Of a DNA stretch of 6,845 nt, positions 1-6,845 are shown piece after piece (position 1 is the stretch's first letter; the number at the start of each line of letters is the position of its first letter). Origin of the DNA: a virus; IMG/VR virus record IMGVR_UViG_3300028829_005090, positions 1 to 6,845 of that record; one strand, given 5' to 3'. A program made the position numbers and the translations under genes. The notes below the pieces were generated by a model. It ran no database searches, had not been told where the DNA came from, and saw only the letters and a list, made by a program, of their open reading frames with translations.

Positions 1-144
1 ATTGCTGGCGAATGTGTTTCAACTCCTGCACCAGAAGAAAGTAACGAAAATTCAACCGTTAGAATAAAGACTCCTACCGTAACCGAGGGCTTTTATACTT
101 CCCTTTATCCAGACGGTTTTGACGGTCTTTTGAATAGTTCAATC
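1..144. repeat. Terminal redundancy, copy A (identical to 6702-6845)
   Basis: Direct base-by-base comparison of both window ends shows 144/144 identity. Confidence 0.97.
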
Positions 145-363
145 GACGGTTTTAAGTCAGGGCCTTTTTATGAAGGTATGCAACAATTTTCTATTTCCAT
201 TGGCGGTGGTTCTGTACCTAGTTGGAATCTTTGTTTCGATGTAGGTATTGCCAACCTTGGCTGTCATGACCTTTCCGTTCCTGCTTACGTTTGGGACTTT
301 ATTAAAGCTTGTTTACTTATTTGCTCTGCTTTTCTTTGTCGTGCAATAATTTTTGGGGGTTAA
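1..363 (+). CDS. pIII-like minor coat/adsorption protein, C-terminal 120 codons (continuation of 5634-6845 across the circular junction)
   Basis: Position 1 is in phase with the ORF that starts at 5634 (6702 and 1 are both codon starts). It ends ...VWDFIKACLLICSAFLCRAIIFGG-TAA, a C-terminal hydrophobic anchor as in Ff g3p. The 130-363 ORF in the track is only the tail of this gene. Confidence 0.8.
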   Translation: MAGECVSTPAPEESNENSTVRIKTPTVTEGFYTSLYPDGFDGLLNSSIDGFKSGPFYEGMQQFSISIGGGSVPSWNLCFDVGIANLGCHDLSVPAYVWDFIKACLLICSAFLCRAIIFGG

Positions 364-366
364 GTT

Positions 367-681
367 ATGGATTTATTAAATCAAATTTGGAATGACTTTG
401 TTGATTTTTGTTATGCCATTGTCATCTCATTAGTTGAAATGTTAAAGGATTTATTTTTTTGGCTTTATGAAACGGTTACAAATGCTTTGATGTTGCTTGT
501 TAACTCTTTGTCTGATGTATTCAGCCTTTTTGATATCACTAGTTATTTAACTGGTTTACCCGCAGACACTCTTAACATTATGGGCCTAATAGGCTTAGAT
601 ACTATTTCATCAATGATTGTTGCGTCTCTTTTGGTTCGTCTTGTTCTCCAACTAATTCCTTTTGTTCGTTTAGGCTCATAG
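367..681 (+). CDS. pVI-like small hydrophobic minor coat protein (104 aa)
   Basis: The ATG lies 4 nt after the pIII-like stop, with SD GGGGG at 355-359. The protein is largely hydrophobic with several membrane-like segments. It sits between the pIII-like and pI-like genes, exactly as Ff gene VI does (112 aa). Confidence 0.6.
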   Translation: MDLLNQIWNDFVDFCYAIVISLVEMLKDLFFWLYETVTNALMLLVNSLSDVFSLFDITSYLTGLPADTLNIMGLIGLDTISSMIVASLLVRLVLQLIPFVRLGS

Positions 682-689
682 GGGTAATT

Positions 690-1877
690 ATGTCTATTTA
701 TTTAATTTTAGGTCGACCAGGTGGCGGCAAAAGTTATGAAGCCACTGTCTATCATGCACTTAAAGCTTTAAAAGATGGTCGCAGAGTTATAACTAACCTT
801 CCTTTAACTGTTTCCGTATTTGAGAAGGTTTTTGGAGAGGAATTTATTGCTTCACACCTAGAGATAAGAACCGAGGCCATTGGCCCACCTCCTAACATCA
901 AATCCAATGGCATTAACTGGAAGCGTTCACCCTCTGAAAAACTTATTCGAAAGCCATTTTCTACCGTTGAATGCTATCAAGATGATTGGAGGCACCCTGA
1001 CACCGGCATCGGTGCTTTGTTTATCGTTGATGAATGTCACTTTGTTTTGCCTCGTGCTAGCACTCCTGTTGAGGTTTCTAACTGGTATTCGATGCATAGG
1101 CACCATGGCTATGACATTCTTTTAATCTCACAAGGCTATAAAAAAATTAATGCTGACATTATCGACATGGTCGAGTTAGTTTATTTTCTTCAAAAAAACA
1201 AAATGTTAGGCGATGAAGGTTCTTATACAAGGAAAATTAAAGATGGTGTTCGTGGAGCTATTGTCAATGCTGATACTCGAAAGTATCAAAAAGAGTATTT
1301 TAAATATTATAAAAGTCATACAGCCTCTAATTCATCTGTTACTGAAGCTCATGCTCAAGATATTCGCGGCTTTTGGCAAGGTGGTCTTATTCGTTCTTCT
1401 ATTGGGATTTTTGTCTTGGTTGGTATTGGCATTGTCTACAACCTAACAAATATGAAAGATGAGCCTGTTTCCCCTACAGTTGAGCCTATAAAAGAGGTTA
1501 GCTATTCTAGACAACAAGTCCTTGATAGAGCTGATTCTAATAAAAGCACTGTTTTAGCTCCTCCTCCTGTTGTCCCTGTCGCTACTGTAGCTGAGACTAA
1601 AAAAGAAGTTGAAATTAAGGATCATCCTTTTTCTAAATTTGAATTTATAATTAAAGGTCGTTTCTTTATGAATGATGTGCAAGATTTTTCTTTTGTGGCT
1701 ACCCAGAACGGCCAACCGCTTTTCTATGTGACTATGCGTGATTTTTATATGGCAGGTTATGGCCTAGAAGTTCTCGGTGATTGTGCTATAAAAATTACCT
1801 ACAAAGACTTTTATTCTTCTTTTATTAATTGTGGCCTTCCTTCCGTTTCAATGACTGGTACTCAACCAATTAATTAA
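690..1877 (+). CDS. Zot/pI-family P-loop NTPase, filamentous phage assembly protein (395 aa)
   Basis: Walker A GRPGGGKS is encoded at 711-734 at the extreme N-terminus. Walker B LFIVDECH has its DE at 1029-1034. There is a single central TM segment (SSIGIFVLVGIGIVYNL) followed by a roughly 140-aa C-terminal domain. This is the Zot (PF05707) architecture. SD AGGGG is at 679-683. Confidence 0.9.
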   Translation: MSIYLILGRPGGGKSYEATVYHALKALKDGRRVITNLPLTVSVFEKVFGEEFIASHLEIRTEAIGPPPNIKSNGINWKRSPSEKLIRKPFSTVECYQDDWRHPDTGIGALFIVDECHFVLPRASTPVEVSNWYSMHRHHGYDILLISQGYKKINADIIDMVELVYFLQKNKMLGDEGSYTRKIKDGVRGAIVNADTRKYQKEYFKYYKSHTASNSSVTEAHAQDIRGFWQGGLIRSSIGIFVLVGIGIVYNLTNMKDEPVSPTVEPIKEVSYSRQQVLDRADSNKSTVLAPPPVVPVATVAETKKEVEIKDHPFSKFEFIIKGRFFMNDVQDFSFVATQNGQPLFYVTMRDFYMAGYGLEVLGDCAIKITYKDFYSSFINCGLPSVSMTGTQPIN

Positions 1878-1887
1878 TAATTATTTG

Positions 1888-1929
1888 CGCTTATTTGGCC
1901 TAAATAGTTGTACTTTAGCCAAATAGGCG
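1888..1929 (+). repeat. Inverted repeat / ssDNA hairpin directly after the pI-like stop (12-bp stem, 18-nt loop)
   Basis: CGCTTATTTGGC (1888-1899) pairs with GCCAAATAGGCG (1918-1929), with one G-T pair. An alternative inner hairpin TATTT-GGCCT-AAATA is possible. No T-run follows, so it is not a classical terminator. Confidence 0.6.
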
Positions 1930-1935
1930 TATAAT
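1908..1935 (+). promoter_or_regulatory. Sigma70-like promoter candidate for the 2060-2818 cassette
   Basis: TTGTAC (1908-1913), a 16-nt spacer, then TATAAT (1930-1935). It is oriented toward the ATG at 2060 and overlaps the loop and 3' arm of the hairpin. Confidence 0.45.
1913..1934. repeat. Left copy of a split direct repeat bracketing the accessory cassette
   Basis: CTTTAGCC-AAAT-AGGCGTATAA here, versus CTTTAGCC-CGCGGC-AGGCGTATAA at 2813-2836. Identical blocks of 8 and 10 nt, exactly 900 bp apart. Confidence 0.6.
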
Positions 1936-2059
1936 AGAATTCAGAAGTTAAGGGAATGGCAGTCAAACGACAGACTTAAACAAGTCGGAGCAAGGGAAAT
2001 AACCCAGATTAAAAATTACTTCTACTAACTATTAACTAATTAATTAAAAGGAATATCAG

Positions 2060-2221
2060 ATGACTACATTAGAAGATTTAAAACATACGCACATGACGTC
2101 TCTTCAATTGAAACGTAAGCTTGAAAACGTTCGTAATGATAAGACTCTTTCAACAAGTGAAAAGATAGCTAAGAAGCGCGCTTTATGGTCTGAATTTGAA
2201 TCTAAATTTCTTGAGGGTTAA
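2060..2221 (+). CDS. Hypothetical 53-aa charged, helical protein (below the ORF-track size cut-off)
   Basis: My own translation is MTTLEDLKHTHMTSLQLKRKLENVRNDKTLSTSEKIAKKRALWSEFESKFLEG. SD AAGGA (2048-2052) lies 7 nt before the ATG. The stop TAA (2219-2221) is 3 nt before the next ATG, and that gene's SD GAGGG lies inside this ORF's 3' end. This is an operon-like arrangement. Confidence 0.55.
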   Translation: MTTLEDLKHTHMTSLQLKRKLENVRNDKTLSTSEKIAKKRALWSEFESKFLEG

Positions 2222-2224
2222 CTT

Positions 2225-2818
2225 ATGATAGGTAAAACATTTTCTGAATCTTGTAAGTTAATGAATATCTCTAGAGTTCAGTTATCAGATGACACTGGCG
2301 TTCCTATTAAGACACTGGGTACATGGTATAAGACTAAGCCAAAGCTAATGTCAAAGCTCTTTGATTCTTATTCAACAGTTTCTAACTCAGAGCTTAATAA
2401 TGCCCTTTCTGTTATAGAGAGATTAAAAATAACAATCGATACTTTAACAAGAATAAAAGATGATAGATTTAAGACTTACGAGCCTATTGAGCCTATTGAG
2501 CCTATTGAGCCTATTGAGCCTATTGAGCCTATTGAGCTTATTGAGCCTATTGATCCTATTTTTAGTGAATACTTTAAGCAGATTATATTTTTTGTTAAGA
2601 ATTCGATTGTTAAAAGGTGTAATCTTAGTTGTTTAGGTTTCAAGCCCATATCTGTTTCGCCTAACGGTTCTTTCACACCAGAGAGCAGGAATGACTTACG
2701 AACGTACATCAACTGGCTTATTAATCTTAGTAGTGTTGATATCCCCGATTATCAAGATGGAGATCCTACAATAGAGGAAATCATTGATTATGTTGAATCT
2801 TCTAATTCTTTTCTTTAG
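2225..2818 (+). CDS. Putative DNA-binding protein: N-terminal helix-turn-helix, (EPI)n repeat linker, unknown C-terminal domain (197 aa)
   Basis: The N-terminal segment ISRVQLSDDTGVPIKTLGTWYK fits the classic HTH pattern (hydrophobic, G, V/I-s, T-h, W). The central part is YEPIEPIEPIEPIEPIEPIELIEPIDPIF. I do not recognise the C-terminal 85 aa. Confidence 0.75.
   Translation: MIGKTFSESCKLMNISRVQLSDDTGVPIKTLGTWYKTKPKLMSKLFDSYSTVSNSELNNALSVIERLKITIDTLTRIKDDRFKTYEPIEPIEPIEPIEPIEPIELIEPIDPIFSEYFKQIIFFVKNSIVKRCNLSCLGFKPISVSPNGSFTPESRNDLRTYINWLINLSSVDIPDYQDGDPTIEEIIDYVESSNSFL
2480..2560 (+). repeat. Tandem repeat, 9 units of 9 bp (GAGCCTATT), in frame within 2225-2818
   Basis: There are six perfect GAGCCTATT units (2480-2533), then GAGCTTATT, GAGCCTATT and GATCCTATT. 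They encode EPI x6, ELI, EPI, DPI. Confidence 0.97.
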
Positions 2819-2836
2819 CCCGCGGCAGGCGTATAA
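2813..2836. repeat. Right copy of the split direct repeat bracketing the accessory cassette
   Basis: CTTTAGCC-CGCGGC-AGGCGTATAA. It includes the TAG stop (2816-2818) of the 197-aa ORF and matches 1913-1934. Confidence 0.6.
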
Positions 2837-2956
2837 AACAAGCCCAGCGCAGCGCTACTCTAAGGCCAATAGATATTTGTATATTTTAACAAGACCCGAT
2901 CATCATAAATAAGACTTTTACCGCCACTTGTACCAAACCGTCTTTTGATTTTAGGG

Positions 2957-2984
2957 TTTTAATCTTTTAATCTTTTAATCTTTT
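2957..2984 (+). repeat. Iteron-like tandem repeat TTTTAATC x3 (plus a partial fourth unit) upstream of rep
   Basis: TTTTAATC occurs at 2957-2964, 2965-2972 and 2973-2980, followed by TTTT. A degenerate relative, CTTTTGATTTTAGGG, lies just upstream (2942-2956). Confidence 0.85.
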
Positions 2985-2998
2985 TGTAGTATATTTAC

Positions 2999-3018
2999 TT
3001 TTTTATAGATATAAAAAA
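2999..3018. repeat. 20-bp AT-only palindrome TTTTTTATA-GA-TATAAAAAA
   Basis: The 9-bp arms at 2999-3007 and 3010-3018 are exact reverse complements. It lies about 75 bp upstream of the rep ATG and directly after the iteron-like repeats. Confidence 0.8.
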
Positions 3019-3092
3019 AGCGTTTAGCAGTCACCACAACCGCCAAACGCCACCATAAACATTCAAGCCACCAAGCTTACAAGGTTTACAAT

Positions 3093-4448
3093 ATGAATAC
3101 TAATTTACAAACAATTAACAGTCAAGCTCACACATTGGGAGGGGCCCCACGTAGTGGGGAGGGCTCCCAATTTGGTGGGCTTCTTGTTACTGTTACCAAA
3201 AACTCTTCCGCCCCTTTAAAATCAAACACTTGGAGAGCACCGTTTTGTCATCCTAATACTGGTGAAGAGGTCTTTTTTGAGCAACCTAAAAAGGTTCAAA
3301 CAGATTATAGGGCTGATAGGTGGGCTTTTAAATCCGTTGTAAATAAAGTACTACCATTCTCTAGAACTGCCAAGTGTATGAGATTTAGGTCATTTACTGA
3401 CGATGGATTAAGTTTGATTAAAATCATGAAGAGTAAAGACAATAAAGCTTTCTATTCTGGCTTGATGGCTTGCGGTAGTGTTTGGAATTGTCCTATTTGC
3501 GCGGCTAAGATTTCAGAGAAAAGACGTATTGAATTAAAAGATGCTTTGGATGTTGCTAAAGATAACAATTTTAAAACTTTCTTGGTTACTCTTACCGTTC
3601 CCCATGGCATCGGTGACGATTTAAAAGATTTACGTTTAAGAATTAGGAAAGCACAAGGTAAATTATCATCTGGTAGGGCATCTATTAAAAATCAACTTAA
3701 AAATCTTGATTTGGGATATACCCAGCACGGCTTTATTCGTGTTCTCGAAGTCACGCACGGACAAAAAAACGGCTTTCATCCTCATTTGCACATTTTAGTT
3801 TTTACGAGTCAATCGGTAACATCTGAACTTCTCGATTCTGTTTATACTTCAAGTTGGCTCAATGCTTGCGTTTCTTCTGGTTTGCCTTTGCCAACTGAAA
3901 AACATGGTTGCCATGTTCAAGATGGTTCAGTTGCCTCTGACTATGTAACAAAATGGGGCATTGAGGATGAAATGACTAAATCTAATTCTAAAGTCTCGCG
4001 TTCTAATAAAGGTGTTACCCCATTCGGTCTATTAAAATGCATTATTGACGGTGACGATGAATTTTATACACCAGAAAAAGCTACTAAACTTTTCTCCGTT
4101 TATTCAAAATGCTTTAAGGGTGCCCGTCAATTGCATTGGTCAGTTGGACTTAGAAAGCTATTGTCACAAGAAAACGAAGTATCAGACCAAGAATTGGTTG
4201 ATTCTAAAGATGATGAAGCCTTTACCATGGGAGTTCTTAGTTTTGAGCAATGGCAAGTCATACGTAGAAAGAAACTAGAATCTAGCATTTTAACTTTGGT
4301 GGAAACTAGTTCTCTTGATGATTTAAAAAGTTTTATTTTTAACTCTACAAATTTAATCCTTATGTCTCATAAAAACGAACTCGATGCACATAATATTGTT
4401 TCCCCTTTCCCAGAGGACCCCAATTATTACAATCGTTATTTAGAATGA
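3093..4448 (+). CDS. rep: Rolling-circle replication initiator, HUH endonuclease of the pC194/pUB110 Rep_1 type (451 aa)
   Basis: There is a Cys-rich motif CGSVWNCPICAAK (3471-3500 covers C..C). Motif 1 is FLVTLTVPH. The HUH motif HPHLHILVF is at 3777-3803. The Y-x-x-K motif DYVTKW has its Tyr codon at 3942-3944. Order and spacing match Rep_1 (PF01446) plasmid initiators. The stop is TGA at 4446-4448. Confidence 0.85.
   Translation: MNTNLQTINSQAHTLGGAPRSGEGSQFGGLLVTVTKNSSAPLKSNTWRAPFCHPNTGEEVFFEQPKKVQTDYRADRWAFKSVVNKVLPFSRTAKCMRFRSFTDDGLSLIKIMKSKDNKAFYSGLMACGSVWNCPICAAKISEKRRIELKDALDVAKDNNFKTFLVTLTVPHGIGDDLKDLRLRIRKAQGKLSSGRASIKNQLKNLDLGYTQHGFIRVLEVTHGQKNGFHPHLHILVFTSQSVTSELLDSVYTSSWLNACVSSGLPLPTEKHGCHVQDGSVASDYVTKWGIEDEMTKSNSKVSRSNKGVTPFGLLKCIIDGDDEFYTPEKATKLFSVYSKCFKGARQLHWSVGLRKLLSQENEVSDQELVDSKDDEAFTMGVLSFEQWQVIRRKKLESSILTLVETSSLDDLKSFIFNSTNLILMSHKNELDAHNIVSPFPEDPNYYNRYLE
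3134..3171 (+). repeat. GC-rich imperfect hairpin embedded in the 5' coding region of rep
   Basis: ATTGGGAG-GGG-CCCCAC-GTA-GTGGGG-AGGG-CTCCCAAT has an outer 8-bp stem, a G-rich internal loop, an inner 6-bp stem and a 3-nt loop. It also contains GGGGCCCC. It stands out strongly against the AT-rich background and encodes the Gly-rich peptide LGGAPRSGEGSQF. Confidence 0.8.
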
Positions 4449-4687
4449 TCTCTTTTCATTTTCTCTTCTATTGCAATACTCGCGAACTGGCTACTAGTCA
4501 CCACAGTATCTTTACAGTGACTTTTTAGCCTCTCTTTTGTTACATCAAATATTCTTATTGTTGATGTATCTTTGTTTTTCTCAAGATCTTCTATTCTCAC
4601 TGTTTTTCTGAATCCCTCCTCTTTTATTATCTCTCTCGCTACTTCTTTGGCTATTTCTTTTATATTTCTTTTTTCTTCTTCTTGCAT
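4436..4687 (-). CDS. Small charged protein, putative transcriptional regulator (possible ribbon-helix-helix at the C-terminus), 83 aa
   Basis: This is the only convincing minus-strand ORF. I place the start at the ATG at 4687, not the track's GTG at 4696, because that GTG is part of the SD AAGGTGA, which lies 5 nt upstream of the ATG. The segment TIRIFDVTKERLKSHCKDTVVTSSQFASIAIEEKMKR fits a beta-strand, helix, helix pattern. The 3' end overlaps the rep 3' end by 13 nt. Confidence 0.55.
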   Translation of the reverse strand: MQEEEKRNIKEIAKEVAREIIKEEGFRKTVRIEDLEKNKDTSTIRIFDVTKERLKSHCKDTVVTSSQFASIAIEEKMKRDHSK

Positions 4688-4707
4688 TTTATTCACCTTT
4701 TGTTTAT

Positions 4708-4742
4708 TGTGTCGTTATGTGTCGCATTGTGTCACAGTGTGA
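4708..4742. promoter_or_regulatory. Operator-like array: TGTGTC x3 at exact 10-bp spacing, ending in the palindrome TCACA-G-TGTGA
   Basis: TGTGTC occurs at 4708-4713, 4718-4723 and 4728-4733. TCACAGTGTGA is at 4732-4742. The array lies in the 96-bp gap between the minus-strand regulator start (4687) and the ATG at 4784. Confidence 0.55.
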
Positions 4743-4783
4743 TTAATCTTTTCTTACATTTTTTATAATATGAGGCTTTATTT

Positions 4784-5083
4784 ATGAAAGTACAAATGCA
4801 AGTTCTATCAATTGGCTCGGGTACTTTAGAAACTGGCGGCGAATGGGCTAATGCTCACGTTCTTGATAGCAACCAAGTTGAGTTTGACGATGGTACTAGA
4901 CAGGAAAAAGGCTGCAAAGTTGCAAAAATCAAAGTCGATTCCTCTAATGATAACCTTGTTGCTAAACGTTTTTTTAGAGAAAACTTTCCCGCTACTTTTA
5001 CTTTAGAAGTAGATACAAGCGTTAAAAAAGGCGCAATGGAAGTCGTTATCAAAGATTTTTTATCAAACATTAAAACGGCTTAA
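4784..5083 (+). CDS. Putative ssDNA-binding protein (pV-like by size and position), 99 aa
   Basis: SD GAGG (4772-4775) lies 8 nt before the ATG. It is the first plus-strand gene after rep and before the coat genes, and its length is close to Ff gVp (87 aa). I recognise no direct motif, so the assignment rests on position only. Confidence 0.45.
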   Translation: MKVQMQVLSIGSGTLETGGEWANAHVLDSNQVEFDDGTRQEKGCKVAKIKVDSSNDNLVAKRFFRENFPATFTLEVDTSVKKGAMEVVIKDFLSNIKTA

Positions 5084-5086
5084 AAA

Positions 5087-5329
5087 ATGGCTGTTTGTAC
5101 TGAATTTGTCAATGGTTACTTAATGCAAAGCTCTGTTAGCGTTGCAAATTGTACTAATTACATTCTTGTAACTGCTGACGAATACAACTCTTTTGCGAAT
5201 GTTTTCGCATTAGATTCCTCGACAATTACCCTTTGCATTACTTTTGGCTTTGGCATGGTTGTCTCTACTTACTTTTTAGCTTATCCAATAATGATGGCTC
5301 AAAAGATTATTAAACTAATAGGAAAATAA
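5087..5329 (+). CDS. Hypothetical small membrane protein (80 aa), possible minor virion or assembly component
   Basis: The ATG is 4 nt after the upstream stop, suggesting coupling. It has a C-terminal TM-like segment ITLCITFGFGMVVSTYFLAYPIMMA followed by the basic tail QKIIKLIGK. There is no clear SD. Confidence 0.45.
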   Translation: MAVCTEFVNGYLMQSSVSVANCTNYILVTADEYNSFANVFALDSSTITLCITFGFGMVVSTYFLAYPIMMAQKIIKLIGK

Positions 5330-5333
5330 AATT

Positions 5334-5474
5334 ATGGATGCAATTTTAGCAGGTGTGGATATTGGTGCGGTTGCCGCTTGGGTTGGAACAATCGGTCTTG
5401 CAATCGTTGGTATTGCTATGGCTTTTCGTGCAATCTTTTTATCAAAATCCGCTGTTCGTATGGTCGGTAAATAA
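5334..5474 (+). CDS. Major coat protein (pVIII-like), 46 aa, no obvious cleavable leader
   Basis: My own translation is MDAILAGVDIGAVAAWVGTIGLAIVGIAMAFRAIFLSKSAVRMVGK. It has an acidic N-terminus (D2, D9), a hydrophobic Gly/Ala-rich core and a basic C-terminus (R32, K38, R42, K46). This is the canonical inovirus coat layout, and the size is close to the leaderless Pf3 coat (44 aa). SD AGGAAA is at 5320-5325, and a strong terminator follows. Confidence 0.8.
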   Translation: MDAILAGVDIGAVAAWVGTIGLAIVGIAMAFRAIFLSKSAVRMVGK

Positions 5475-5491
5475 TCCAAACGTTCAGTTTT

Positions 5492-5528
5492 AAAGGGGCT
5501 TTTTAGCTCCTTTTTTTTCTTTTTTTTT
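5492..5528 (+). terminator. Rho-independent terminator after the major coat gene
   Basis: The stem is AAAGGGGCT (5492-5500) paired with AGCTCCTTT (5505-5513), with one G-U pair. The loop is TTTT, and a T-run follows (T8-C-T9 spans 5511-5528). Confidence 0.8.
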
Positions 5529-5539
5529 GGGGGTTTATT

Positions 5540-5641
5540 ATGGTTACTGGTCTAGTTAGTGCTTTTTGCTATACGTGCTTTGTAATGCTTGGCGCTTTGA
5601 TGGGCGATGTTCTTGTTAAAGGGATACATAAACATGCTTAA
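5540..5641 (+). CDS. 33-aa hydrophobic protein, pVII/pIX-like minor coat candidate
   Basis: My own translation is MVTGLVSAFCYTCFVMLGALMGDVLVKGIHKHA. SD GGGGG (5529-5533) lies 6 nt before the ATG. Its stop overlaps the pIII-like start (ATGCTTAA, 5634-5641). The size matches Ff pVII (33 aa) and pIX (32 aa). Confidence 0.5.
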   Translation: MVTGLVSAFCYTCFVMLGALMGDVLVKGIHKHA

Positions 5642-6845
5642 ATTTATTTTTCTTTTTATACCTGCTTTTTTCATTTTTTCCACTTCCTCCTTTGCCGATG
5701 AAATTCCTGCAACTTTAAATCATTTTCCTACTGGTACATGTAAACCTTATCAAAACTTAGGTGACTTTTCTTATAATGTCACTTTTGAAGCTTGTTTTTC
5801 TGAAAAATCCGCTCTTGCCGCCCAAAGAGGTCGCAATGTTGTCCCTGTTTATCCTACATTGGAATCTGACGGCACTTATTCAAATGGTGGCGGTTATTAT
5901 TATAATGACGGCTTAAAATTTACCGCTTTTAGTTTTACAACTACTAATGTCGTTAGCTCTTATTCTTGTGATGACCCTGCTTATCCTGAGATGTCTCAAG
6001 ATGGAAAAAGCTGCTTAAATAGTTTCGGTGGCGCTTCTTCTGAGCTTGACCAATTTATAGAGAATAAAGCTGATTTAGAGATTGCCTTTGATGCTTTAGA
6101 TACAAATGTCATTGATCCTAACTTAGAAGCTATGTCTAATATTAATAATTCTATTGACGAACAACTCGATGCTACAGCCCAAGCAATGGCAAACGTTGAT
6201 AATATTACTCAAATTAATGATAATGTTAAAACTTTGTCTGATTTATCCCCTGATAATTCTTCTTTGCAATCTCTTTCTAATATTGCCAATTCTATTGATA
6301 TTGAGAGCCAAGCACTTCTATCAGATTCTTTTGAAAATGTCACAGGAATGATTAATCAACGTTCAGATGCTACAGCTATTTTTAATTCTTCTAATCAATT
6401 TGCCGGATTTGCTCAAGATGGAATCGAATATTATTATGGACTTGGAGAGCAACTTTATACAGCAACTAGCCAGTCTCAAGTAGATAGCATTTCCGATAGT
6501 ATGGCTCAAGCTATGAGCGAAATTAATTCTAATATTGAACAATCCTATACAACTTCATCTGAAATAAATAACTCGATTAATATTATTAATTCTTTAGCTA
6601 CTGAAAATAATAACAACATTGCACAAATTTCTAATAACAATCAAACAGCTTTAAATATTAATAGTGAATCCTCCAATGCTTCTTCGAACGGTGAGACTTG
6701 TATTGCTGGCGAATGTGTTTCAACTCCTGCACCAGAAGAAAGTAACGAAAATTCAACCGTTAGAATAAAGACTCCTACCGTAACCGAGGGCTTTTATACT
6801 TCCCTTTATCCAGACGGTTTTGACGGTCTTTTGAATAGTTCAATC
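5634..6845 (+). CDS. pIII-like minor coat/adsorption protein, N-terminal 404 codons; runs off the window end and continues at 1-363 (476 aa in total on the circle)
   Basis: Hand translation found no stop from 5634 to 6845. The signal peptide is MLKFIFLFIPAFFIFSTSSFA, followed by DE. A 4-Cys N-terminal domain is followed by a long Asn/Ser/Asp/Ile-rich central region. The C-terminal anchor is encoded at 1-363. The ORF is missing from the track because it has no stop inside the window. Confidence 0.8.
   Translation, partial: MLKFIFLFIPAFFIFSTSSFADEIPATLNHFPTGTCKPYQNLGDFSYNVTFEACFSEKSALAAQRGRNVVPVYPTLESDGTYSNGGGYYYNDGLKFTAFSFTTTNVVSSYSCDDPAYPEMSQDGKSCLNSFGGASSELDQFIENKADLEIAFDALDTNVIDPNLEAMSNINNSIDEQLDATAQAMANVDNITQINDNVKTLSDLSPDNSSLQSLSNIANSIDIESQALLSDSFENVTGMINQRSDATAIFNSSNQFAGFAQDGIEYYYGLGEQLYTATSQSQVDSISDSMAQAMSEINSNIEQSYTTSSEINNSINIINSLATENNNNIAQISNNNQTALNINSESSNASSNGETCIAGECVSTPAPEESNENSTVRIKTPTVTEGFYTSLYPDGFDGLLNSSI
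6702..6845. repeat. Terminal redundancy, copy B (identical to 1-144)
   Basis: Direct comparison shows 144/144 identity. Confidence 0.97.

Follow-up and report, generated by a model that had tools for sequence, protein, structure and literature searches.

The viral DNA analysed here, IMG/VR record IMGVR_UViG_3300028829_005090 (positions 1 to 6,845, all of which is referred to as the window), is a small filamentous phage (inovirus) that uses a pC194-type HUH rolling-circle initiator, not an Ff gene II-type protein. A GC-rich hairpin lies inside the 5′ end of the initiator gene, rep. We propose, with a probability of roughly 0.6, that a plus-strand (rolling-circle, or “double-strand”) origin of the Rep_1 type is contained within codons 1-40 of rep, and that this hairpin forms its 5′ structural half. 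The element is assigned to the Rep_1 (pC194) type of plus-strand origin because a conserved nick-site motif adjoins the hairpin foot. An earlier interpretation of the letters alone (the sequence-only reading) had offered a packaging signal or an origin hairpin as alternatives; the second has proved the better choice, but the adjoining motif at position 3183 had been overlooked. The features on which the argument depends are as follows.

3093-4448, + strand: rep, 451 amino acids, Rep_1/HUH rolling-circle initiator (PF01446), with the putative origin at codons 11-40
3124-3182, + strand: full three-tier imperfect hairpin, 59 nt, 22 bp; minimum free energy (MFE) as single-stranded DNA (ssDNA) -16.7 kcal/mol, z -4.2
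3124-3131/3175-3182 (basal), 3134-3141/3164-3171 (middle), 3145-3150/3154-3159 (apical), + strand: the three tiers of the hairpin
3134-3171, + strand: 38-nt hairpin of the sequence-only reading, corresponding to the upper two tiers
3150-3154, + strand: apex C-GTA-G, a GNA triloop closed by C:G (DNA mini-hairpin type), by direct reading of the sequence
3183-3189, + strand: CTTGTTA, core of the predicted Rep nick site (family consensus CTTGGTA)
3180-3211, + strand: extended conserved motif of the putative origin, CTT CTTGTTACTGTTACCAAAAACTCTTCCGCC (family form CCC CTTGGTATAGTTACCAAAAC-TCTTCC; conservation by position in 68 loci)

Structure and stability of the hairpin

The segment 3134-3171 reads ATTGGGAG GGG CCCCAC GTA GTGGGG AGGG CTCCCAAT. 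Its sequence and coordinates had been given exactly, and as ssDNA it folds into the interrupted stem of 8 and 6 bp that had been described for it, at -11.8 kcal/mol (z -3.6); none of 200 dinucleotide shuffles folds as well. Below it is a third, basal stem of 8 bp, in which AAGCTCAC (3124-3131) pairs with GTGGGCTT (3175-3182). With this stem included, the 59-nt hairpin is the most stable 60- or 80-nt ssDNA window of the whole genome, as calculated with a nearest-neighbour energy model that has no special bonus for the GNA triloop. The genome as a whole is AT-rich (35.7% GC). At 71% GC, 3134-3171 is its top 38-nt window, although to call it “by far” the most GC-dense patch was an overstatement, since 2818-2855 reaches 68%. 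The coding context is as previously claimed: the hairpin occupies codons 11-30 of the 451-amino acid Rep, ahead of the Rep_1 match at residues 132-243.

The second GC-rich island (2818-2857, 68% GC) directly follows an open reading frame (ORF) at 2225-2818. It has no significant fold (z +1.0), and contains AGC-GCA-GCT, another C-GCA-G minihairpin.

Two other interpretations of the structure were considered and set aside. A + strand terminator or attenuator was rejected because the relatives have no U-run after the hairpin. An alternative fold, which would pair TTTGGT (3171-3176) with ACCAAA (3195-3200) and so leave the nick in a loop, could form in the window, but is not conserved in loci L077 and L078, which share the window's motif variant yet not this pairing. 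An Rfam search at a permissive threshold gave no match in the window.

The nick-type motif and its conservation

The sequence CTTGTTACTGTTACCAAAAACTCTTCC, a variant of CTTGGTATAGTTACCAAAAC, begins at 3183, one base past the hairpin foot at 3182. The nick-site consensus of Rep_1 initiators is CTTGATA (PMC10378824). The window's CTTGTTA matches this at six of seven positions, on the rep strand only, and is itself a variant, relatives having CTTGGTA; the MFE fold leaves it single-stranded, next to the 3′ foot of the hairpin. If the comparison with CTTG^ATA of pC194 and phiX174 holds, the nick would fall between G3186 and T3187. The heptamer recurs on the + strand at 496 and 5612, so it would take the hairpin and the extended motif to make the origin unique.

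Complete Aeromonas plasmids (pAhX22, pAerI, pAerIV and pAerVI) have near-copies of the motif, as do dozens of metagenomic circles of 2-3 kb and L002, a 5.8-kb inovirus contig that looks unrelated; the window's own 20-nt variant, CTTGTTACTGTTACCAAAAC, is present unchanged in L077 and L078. In the relatives examined, the motif is either just 5′ of rep or inside it, and always on the rep strand. Where enough upstream sequence was available (125 loci, from Aeromonas plasmids, metagenomic 2-3 kb circles, and other inoviruses), it is within the uninterrupted Rep ORF in 103. Codons at the motif are frozen: leucine is CTT in 88 of 94 cases, glycine GGT in 87 of 89, isoleucine the rare ATA in 56 of 58, and lysine AAA in 66 of 69, in replicons with a median GC content of 57%. 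For these counts the block was located by its peptide pattern alone, so codon choice could not bias them. The reading frame also varies, with frame 0 used in 92 loci, frame 2 in nine (PLVNITK...), and frame 1 in two. Because the sequence stays intact while the frame changes, these comparisons indicate that the motif is under selection at the DNA level, not the protein level.

Frame-shifted motifs of the CCCTTGGTAAACATTACGAAAT type, read as PLVNITKLR, occur in L046, L047, L054, L060, L063, L066, and L067, among others (Paenibacillus-like and IMG/VR relatives). In two loci, L114 (~896-952) and L115 (~566-622), a single rep ORF contains a tandem pair of nick-type motifs spaced 36 nt apart (CTTGGTATATACGCGAAAAC ... 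CTTGGTATAGATGCGAAATC); these may be duplicated or hybrid origins.

Coupling of hairpin and motif among relatives

A GC-rich helix abutting the motif is the rule, but its length varies between 4 bp (a minihairpin) and 32 bp; that of the window is among the long ones. Stem sequences are not shared between lineages (those of L156 and others, for example, are unrelated). Among 66 non-redundant loci, 65% have their 80 nt upstream of CTTG in the top 5% of the replicon for stability, and the median gap between the hairpin 3′ end and CTTG is 3 nt. For a further comparison the motif definition was widened, and redundancy was limited by grouping the 70 nt upstream of the motif into 71 lineages at a 70% identity threshold. 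In 27% of these a helix of 20 bp or more has its end 0-4 nt short of CTTG, vs. 10% of control positions, which were chosen at random in the same replicons and not matched for GC content (binomial p 8e-5); with a minimum of 4 bp, the proportions rise to 75 and 43%. Even in very divergent replicons the helix foot is only 0-1 nt from CTTG, the conserved CCC often forms part of the stem, and in ~40% of relatives the hairpin is the strongest fold of the whole contig.

The inovirus contig L002 has, at 1634-1691, the same three tiers as the window (~9-10, 8, and 6 bp) and the same internal-loop sizes, with a GCA triloop in place of GTA. The stems of the two have no common sequence and could not be aligned by MAFFT; the register was set by the tiers and checked by script. 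Of the 14 base pairs in the 38-nt hairpin, eight are changed on both sides, none on one side only, and none is broken. This is the outcome expected from the sequence-only reading, which had proposed a covariation check and had suggested that the DNA structure, rather than the peptide, is under selection: the eight changes are compensatory, and the encoded peptide is variable and predicted to be disordered.

That the palindrome has no function, having arisen by chance or as a by-product of Gly-rich low-complexity coding, is scarcely credible. GC-rich Gly, Pro, and Arg codons do favor self-complementarity, and a helix of at least 20 bp is also found at ~10% of random positions in these replicons, but neither accounts for the failure of all 200 shuffles to reach the same stability, the compensatory changes relative to L002, or the family-wide coupling to the motif, strand bias, and loop bias (the last two described below).

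The relatives also bear on whether the hairpin is a packaging (morphogenetic) signal like Ff hairpin A, placed in this case in coding sequence. Like the Ff packaging signal, the hairpin adjoins the (putative) origin; it is the most stable on the + strand of the phage genome, and the one in inovirus L002 keeps its three-tier design. The same unit of hairpin and motif, however, is found in complete non-phage plasmids: Aeromonas plasmids of 2.3-3.0 kb, consisting of Rep and one or two small ORFs, have 21-26 bp hairpins at the same place. Neither they nor many 2-3 kb circles that have the unit carry morphogenesis genes, and tblastn with the Zot, coat, and pIII-like proteins of the window matches only L002, L059, and a few viral contigs. 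Among the 49 motif-bearing lineages of plasmid size (up to 3.3 kb), 21 have a foot hairpin of at least 12 bp. Tight coupling to a nick motif would also be unexpected of a packaging signal, and we regard this explanation, the other of the two originally offered, as very improbable.

Next in stability among the ssDNA hairpins of the genome is one of ~17 bp at 1887-1931 on the + strand (-12.5 kcal/mol, z -3.0), in the intergenic region after the zot-like gene, where it overlaps a promoter-like TTGTAC...TATAAT stretch. It could be a packaging signal or a minus-strand origin, and is a better candidate than the rep hairpin for a phage-specific ssDNA signal.

Strand preference of the fold

The + strand fold is the more stable in 51 lineages and the - strand fold in 19 (p 1.7e-4), owing to G:T pairs; in the window the complementary strand gives -14.8 kcal/mol, vs. 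-16.7 for the + strand. Apical C-GNA-G loops make up 15 of the 78 loops next to nick motifs, vs. 9 of 1632 at control positions. Upstream of the motif the pattern NN-C-GNA-G-N′N′ occurs 4.6 times per kb on the + strand and not at all on the - strand, with a frequency of ~0.5 per kb elsewhere. With a C:G closing pair, d(GNA) triloops are exceptionally stable in DNA (PMC3201870, PMC13037366); they have been reported at replication signals of ssDNA phages, and bind single-stranded DNA-binding protein (SSB) poorly (PMC13037366). Together, the strand bias and the C-GNA-G caps argue against a binding site for a protein on duplex DNA, and somewhat against a purely RNA role. They point to + strand ssDNA, as a displaced strand or a cruciform arm, as the molecule that folds. 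The earlier suggestion of an ssDNA signal overlapping coding sequence agrees with this strand-specific bias and with the position of hairpin and motif inside the rep ORF.

The same features could also describe a minus-strand (single-strand) origin, in which the hairpin on SSB-coated + circles would be recognized by host primase, RNA polymerase, or PriA. Such priming might take place instead of recognition by Rep or besides it; the hairpin is upstream of the nick, and would be exposed only near the end of a round. Beyond the strand-biased stability and the caps, several observations are consistent with this. GCGNAGC-type minihairpins, poor at binding SSB, are found at the priming sites of G4, St-1, alpha3, and RSF1010 ssiA (PMC13037366); single-strand origins (sso) are active on one strand only (PMC5703833); the hairpin is the strongest ssDNA fold of the genome, as are its counterparts of their contigs in ~40% of relatives; and a pC194 hairpin at the same position includes TAGCGA, which resembles the CS-6 sequence of ssoA (for CS-6, PMC10378824). 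A priming site needs no exact spacing, however, yet the helix foot is held at 0-1 nt from CTTG in divergent replicons. Known sso are 130-300 nt long, non-coding, cassette-like, and variable in position (PMC5703833), whereas this element is 59 nt and coding. There is no CS-6 (TAGCGT/A) in 3124-3182 and no conserved primase CTG, and the genome's other good ssDNA hairpin, at 1887-1931, is in a true intergenic region. On balance a minus-strand origin is an unlikely explanation, though one with some weight; an added role in minus-strand priming, secondary to the origin role, is possible.

Upstream features and a possible RNA role

Two - strand features flank the start of rep.

3097-3125, - strand (3125 to 3097): promoter-like site TTGACT-17-TAGTAT, directed leftward across the rep start from within the first ~10 codons; consensus match only
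3009-3051, - strand (hairpin 3051 to 3019): intrinsic-terminator-like hairpin and T-run upstream of the rep ribosome-binding site; candidate countertranscript end

Equivalents are found at the same relative place on the - strand of L002 (promoter-like site 1619 to 1592, terminator 1545 to 1515). To judge from their sequences, the pair looks like the two ends of a ~75-nt countertranscript antisense to the rep ribosome-binding region. Countertranscripts are the usual copy-control device of rolling-circle plasmids.

The hairpin might act in the rep mRNA, 31 nt after the AUG, to throttle or otherwise regulate translation of Rep, possibly in concert with the putative antisense RNA. Its stability as RNA is very high (-34.1 kcal/mol, z -4.5); the + strand bias due to G:T pairs would suit G:U pairs in RNA as well; the promoter/terminator pair is immediately upstream in both the window and L002; and antisense control of Rep translation has been proposed for pC194 and pUB110 (PMC5703833). 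Against this, the enriched C-GNA-G triloop confers stability specifically on DNA (PMC3201870, PMC13037366), no part of the hairpin would be covered by the putative countertranscript, and the helix is anchored to the nick motif and not to the start of the gene: between ATG and motif there are 15 to 46 codons, and an upstream ATG is missing from some loci. An RNA element is thus improbable as the main explanation; a role in the mRNA alongside the origin role is possible.

Farther upstream in the intergenic region, at 2957-2984, is a perfect 8-nt tandem repeat, TTTTAATC, in 3.5 copies. It could be an iteron-like or bent-DNA element.

Rep and the translation of its 5′ end

The window's Rep matches Pfam PF01446 with an E-value of 6.5e-13 and 49 bits (cut-off 33). 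A protein search found more than 1000 homologues in Logan, of ~45-58% identity and mostly on 2-2.6 kb contigs, some carrying the name “protein rep” (Vibrio, Photobacterium, Aeromonas). Across 31 homologues the HUH-type H229-P-H231-x-H233 and the Y284 region are conserved. A scan of IMG/VR with the single Rep protein found no relatives; an alignment-based scan did find them. The closest relative, P0001 (L001), is 96% identical, but is on a 1.3-kb contig that begins after the hairpin. By tblastn against known phages only distant Reps were recovered (blackswan219-6, PMBT54, and Propionibacterium B5); because these align from residue ~89, they are uninformative on the N-terminal region.

Family-wide conservation of Rep begins near residue 68-73. 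The N-termini of the homologues are unalignable save for one short block, LGIVTKTSSP (LVTVTKNSSAP in the window), right after the Gly-rich variable stretch. An AlphaFold2 model (predicted template modeling score 0.72) is consistent with this: residues 1-50 have a predicted local distance difference test score below 50 (about 30), and are predicted to be disordered, with the fold starting near residue 68.

The region of rep that bears the hairpin and motif nevertheless reads as translated sequence. A true start at Met96, preceded by an untranslated leader, was rejected on three grounds. Residues R73, R76, S81, P88, and C95, all upstream of the first internal Met, are invariant in the 31 homologues. 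In nearly all loci of the relatives, one frame is open from the motif through the entire Rep, and the other two close within a few codons. In the window, finally, there is no in-frame start codon between the motif and Rep residue 73.

The pair Cys95-Met96 (Met96 at 3378-3380) is also invariant in the 31 homologues, and gene callers often begin Rep at Met96. It is conceivable, by analogy with Ff gene X or phiX A*, that an internal in-frame start here yields a shorter Rep. The RefSeq “protein rep” starts of L003 (pAhX22, 329), L005 (pAerI, 421), and L006 (pAerIV, 271) are downstream of the origin motif, and since the open and conserved reading frame extends upstream across the motif, these annotated starts are probably too short.

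A proposed mechanism, and points against it

If the element is a plus-strand origin, the Rep_1-family HUH nuclease encoded by the same gene would cut the + (viral) strand at CTTG^TTA, four bases past the hairpin 3′ foot. Rep would remain on the 5′ end, and the 3′-OH would prime leading-strand synthesis. The hairpin would be displaced last, and would refold on the displaced + strand; at initiation it might instead extrude from the supercoiled replicative form. Refolded, it would be a compact landmark capped by a GNA triloop, a type of cap reported to be poor at SSB binding. With this landmark abutting the single-stranded nick motif, Rep would have a unique and correctly placed target for initiation, and above all for termination and recircularization: the terminating cleavage and joining would take place at the regenerated single-stranded nick motif, immediately 3′ of the hairpin. 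The Gly-rich peptide (residues ~11-30) would be a disordered tail at the N-terminus, with the DNA determining its sequence. Sequence analysis establishes the hairpin and its place inside the ORF across the family, its contact with the conserved motif, the selection on the motif's DNA, the compensating stem changes, and the preference for the + strand. The nicking by Rep and its exact position we infer from the similarity to CTTG^ATA, and we also infer the part played by the hairpin in recognition and termination.

Several points weigh against this interpretation. At the variable position of CTTG-x-TA the window has T, unlike the family (G) and pC194 (A). The pC194 and pUB110 origins are not within an ORF, so that the best-studied members of the family differ in layout, and a passage in PMC7072734, citing Gros 1989, has a 36-bp pC194 sequence still terminating without the larger palindrome. 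The + strand bias and SSB-resistant caps would be equally expected of a minus-strand priming site (PMC13037366). The long hairpin is not universal: about one-fourth of lineages have no helix at the foot, and most of the remainder have only a 4-9 bp minihairpin, leaving the long form in a minority. Since many lineages do without it, a long stem would not be strictly required for origin function. The statistics have limits as well, in that the control positions were not GC-matched and the shuffle z-scores are modest (median -2.1, with only half below -2), and many of the loci are on metagenomic contigs of uncertain host and completeness.

A broader hypothesis would have a large clade of Rep_1 replicons (small Aeromonas, Vibrio, and Shewanella plasmids, those of many uncultured hosts, and several inoviruses) carry a ~90-nt all-in-one cis element in the translated 5′ end of rep, in which a + strand hairpin with a GNA cap and resistance to SSB is joined to the nick site. 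It would serve as landmark for Rep at initiation and termination, as minus-strand priming site, and, in phages, as packaging signal, with the disordered Rep tail a mere by-product in any frame. We consider this speculative and rather unlikely.

Other features of the genome

The window represents one circular genome of 6701 bp: bases 1-144 recur exactly at 6702-6845, as a 144-nt terminal repeat. A search of the whole genome at the nucleotide level against 50,697 phage records found no match. The + strand carries all long ORFs except one, and includes those for a 46-amino acid coat-like protein, a DUF2523 protein, and the following.

690-1877, + strand: Zot-type assembly ATPase (PF05707)

A 476-amino acid pIII-like ORF (from 5634) spans the circle junction. 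In the ORF at 2225-2818 (197 amino acids, no Pfam match), nine tandem copies of GAGCCTATT at 2480-2560 encode an (EPI)n/(PIE)n repeat, likely a length-variable linker. The only long - strand ORF (4436-4696, 86 amino acids) is convergent with the end of rep, weakly matches ribbon-helix-helix (CopG-like) proteins, and has 10-nt repeats ahead of it at 4706-4741; a repressor and its operator are probable.

Implications

If the assignment is correct, it locates the probable plus-strand origin of an otherwise uncharacterized marine-type inovirus and, by extension, the origins of more than 100 small plasmids and phages that have no origin annotation. It would provide a clear example of a cis-acting DNA signal overriding coding, with frozen synonymous sites, use of three frames, and a disordered tail, and would extend to the Rep_1 family the “origin inside initiator gene” layout known from pT181 and phiX174. 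In practical terms, the ~90-nt element could be a handle for phagemid or ssDNA-production vectors based on these Rep_1 replicons. It also allows the question of whether pC194-type HUH Reps, like relaxases, read a hairpin together with a single-stranded substrate.

Comparison with known systems

A literature search of partial coverage, which is not proof of novelty, found no description of a CTTGGTA rolling-circle motif or of a double-strand origin (dso) inside rep for Rep_1 replicons or inoviruses. In phiX174, the gene A origin (CAACTTG^ATATTAATAAC) is within the gene for its own HUH initiator. The CTTG cleavage context is common to phiX174 and the window, but the phiX174 initiator belongs to another family (Phage_GPA, in the Microviridae), and no adjacent long hairpin is needed there. 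In origins of transfer (oriT) with their relaxases, and in IS608-type HUH systems, an inverted repeat just 5′ of a conserved single-stranded cleavage site serves at termination to mark that site on the displaced strand for recognition. These are conjugation and transposition systems, whereas there are no transfer genes here; the likeness is architectural, and is meant as a functional analogy and not as a claim of membership. Within the HUH family, pC194-type Reps can act as relaxases (overview in PMC5714925).

In the Ff phages (f1/M13), packaging signal A and the minus-origin hairpins B and C are likewise strand-specific ssDNA hairpins clustered with the plus origin. They differ in being non-coding, phage-specific, and served by a gene II-type initiator, whereas the element described here is coding, is common to plasmids, and has a Rep_1 nick motif. 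At the replication signals of G4, St-1, alpha3, and RSF1010 ssiA, the GCGNAGC/GCGNNAGC mini-hairpins likewise cap a + strand hairpin with C-GNA-G (PMC13037366). They mark complementary-strand priming sites, however, and here the cap is on a hairpin fused to a plus-strand nick motif; the flanks of the window's cap are also different (CAC-GTA-GTG, not GC-GNA-GC).

A dso is usually upstream of rep, with the exception of the pT181 family, and usually has a Rep-binding site adjacent to the nick (PMC5703833). As in the window, the pT181 origin is in the 5′ part of the initiator coding region, where the encoded peptide is dispensable in pT181, and has a conserved nick element beside a divergent inverted repeat (PMC5703833). 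The initiators are unrelated in fold, Rep_1 HUH here and Rep_trans in pT181, and the pT181 nick is in the loop of the IR-II cruciform, unlike the motif here, which is single-stranded and 3′ of the hairpin foot.

The dso of pC194 and pUB110 are served by the same initiator family (PF01446), and have a CTTG-x-TA motif on the rep-sense strand near rep (PMC10378824); the CTTGATA site was confirmed in both sequences. In pC194 (L158), on the - strand of the record, the ~80 nt 5′ of CTTGATA include a two-tier hairpin, AAAGGATTT-GA-GC-GTA-GC-GAA-AAATCCTTT. Its apex is C-GTA-G, with the TAGCGA noted above, and it ends 10 nt 5′ of the nick site; a palindrome of 11 bp lies close by on the 3′ side of the nick. 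The present group differs from pC194 and pUB110 in its core (CTTGGTA in relatives and CTTGTTA in the window, not CTTGATA), in its extended motif (..TAGTTACCAAAAC.TCTTCC), in having the hairpin foot 0-4 nt from the motif, and in placing the putative origin in the translated rep ORF, whereas in pC194 and pUB110 each of the three frames is closed immediately past the motif. By initiator family and type of nick motif, the predicted element is nonetheless an origin of the pC194 family.

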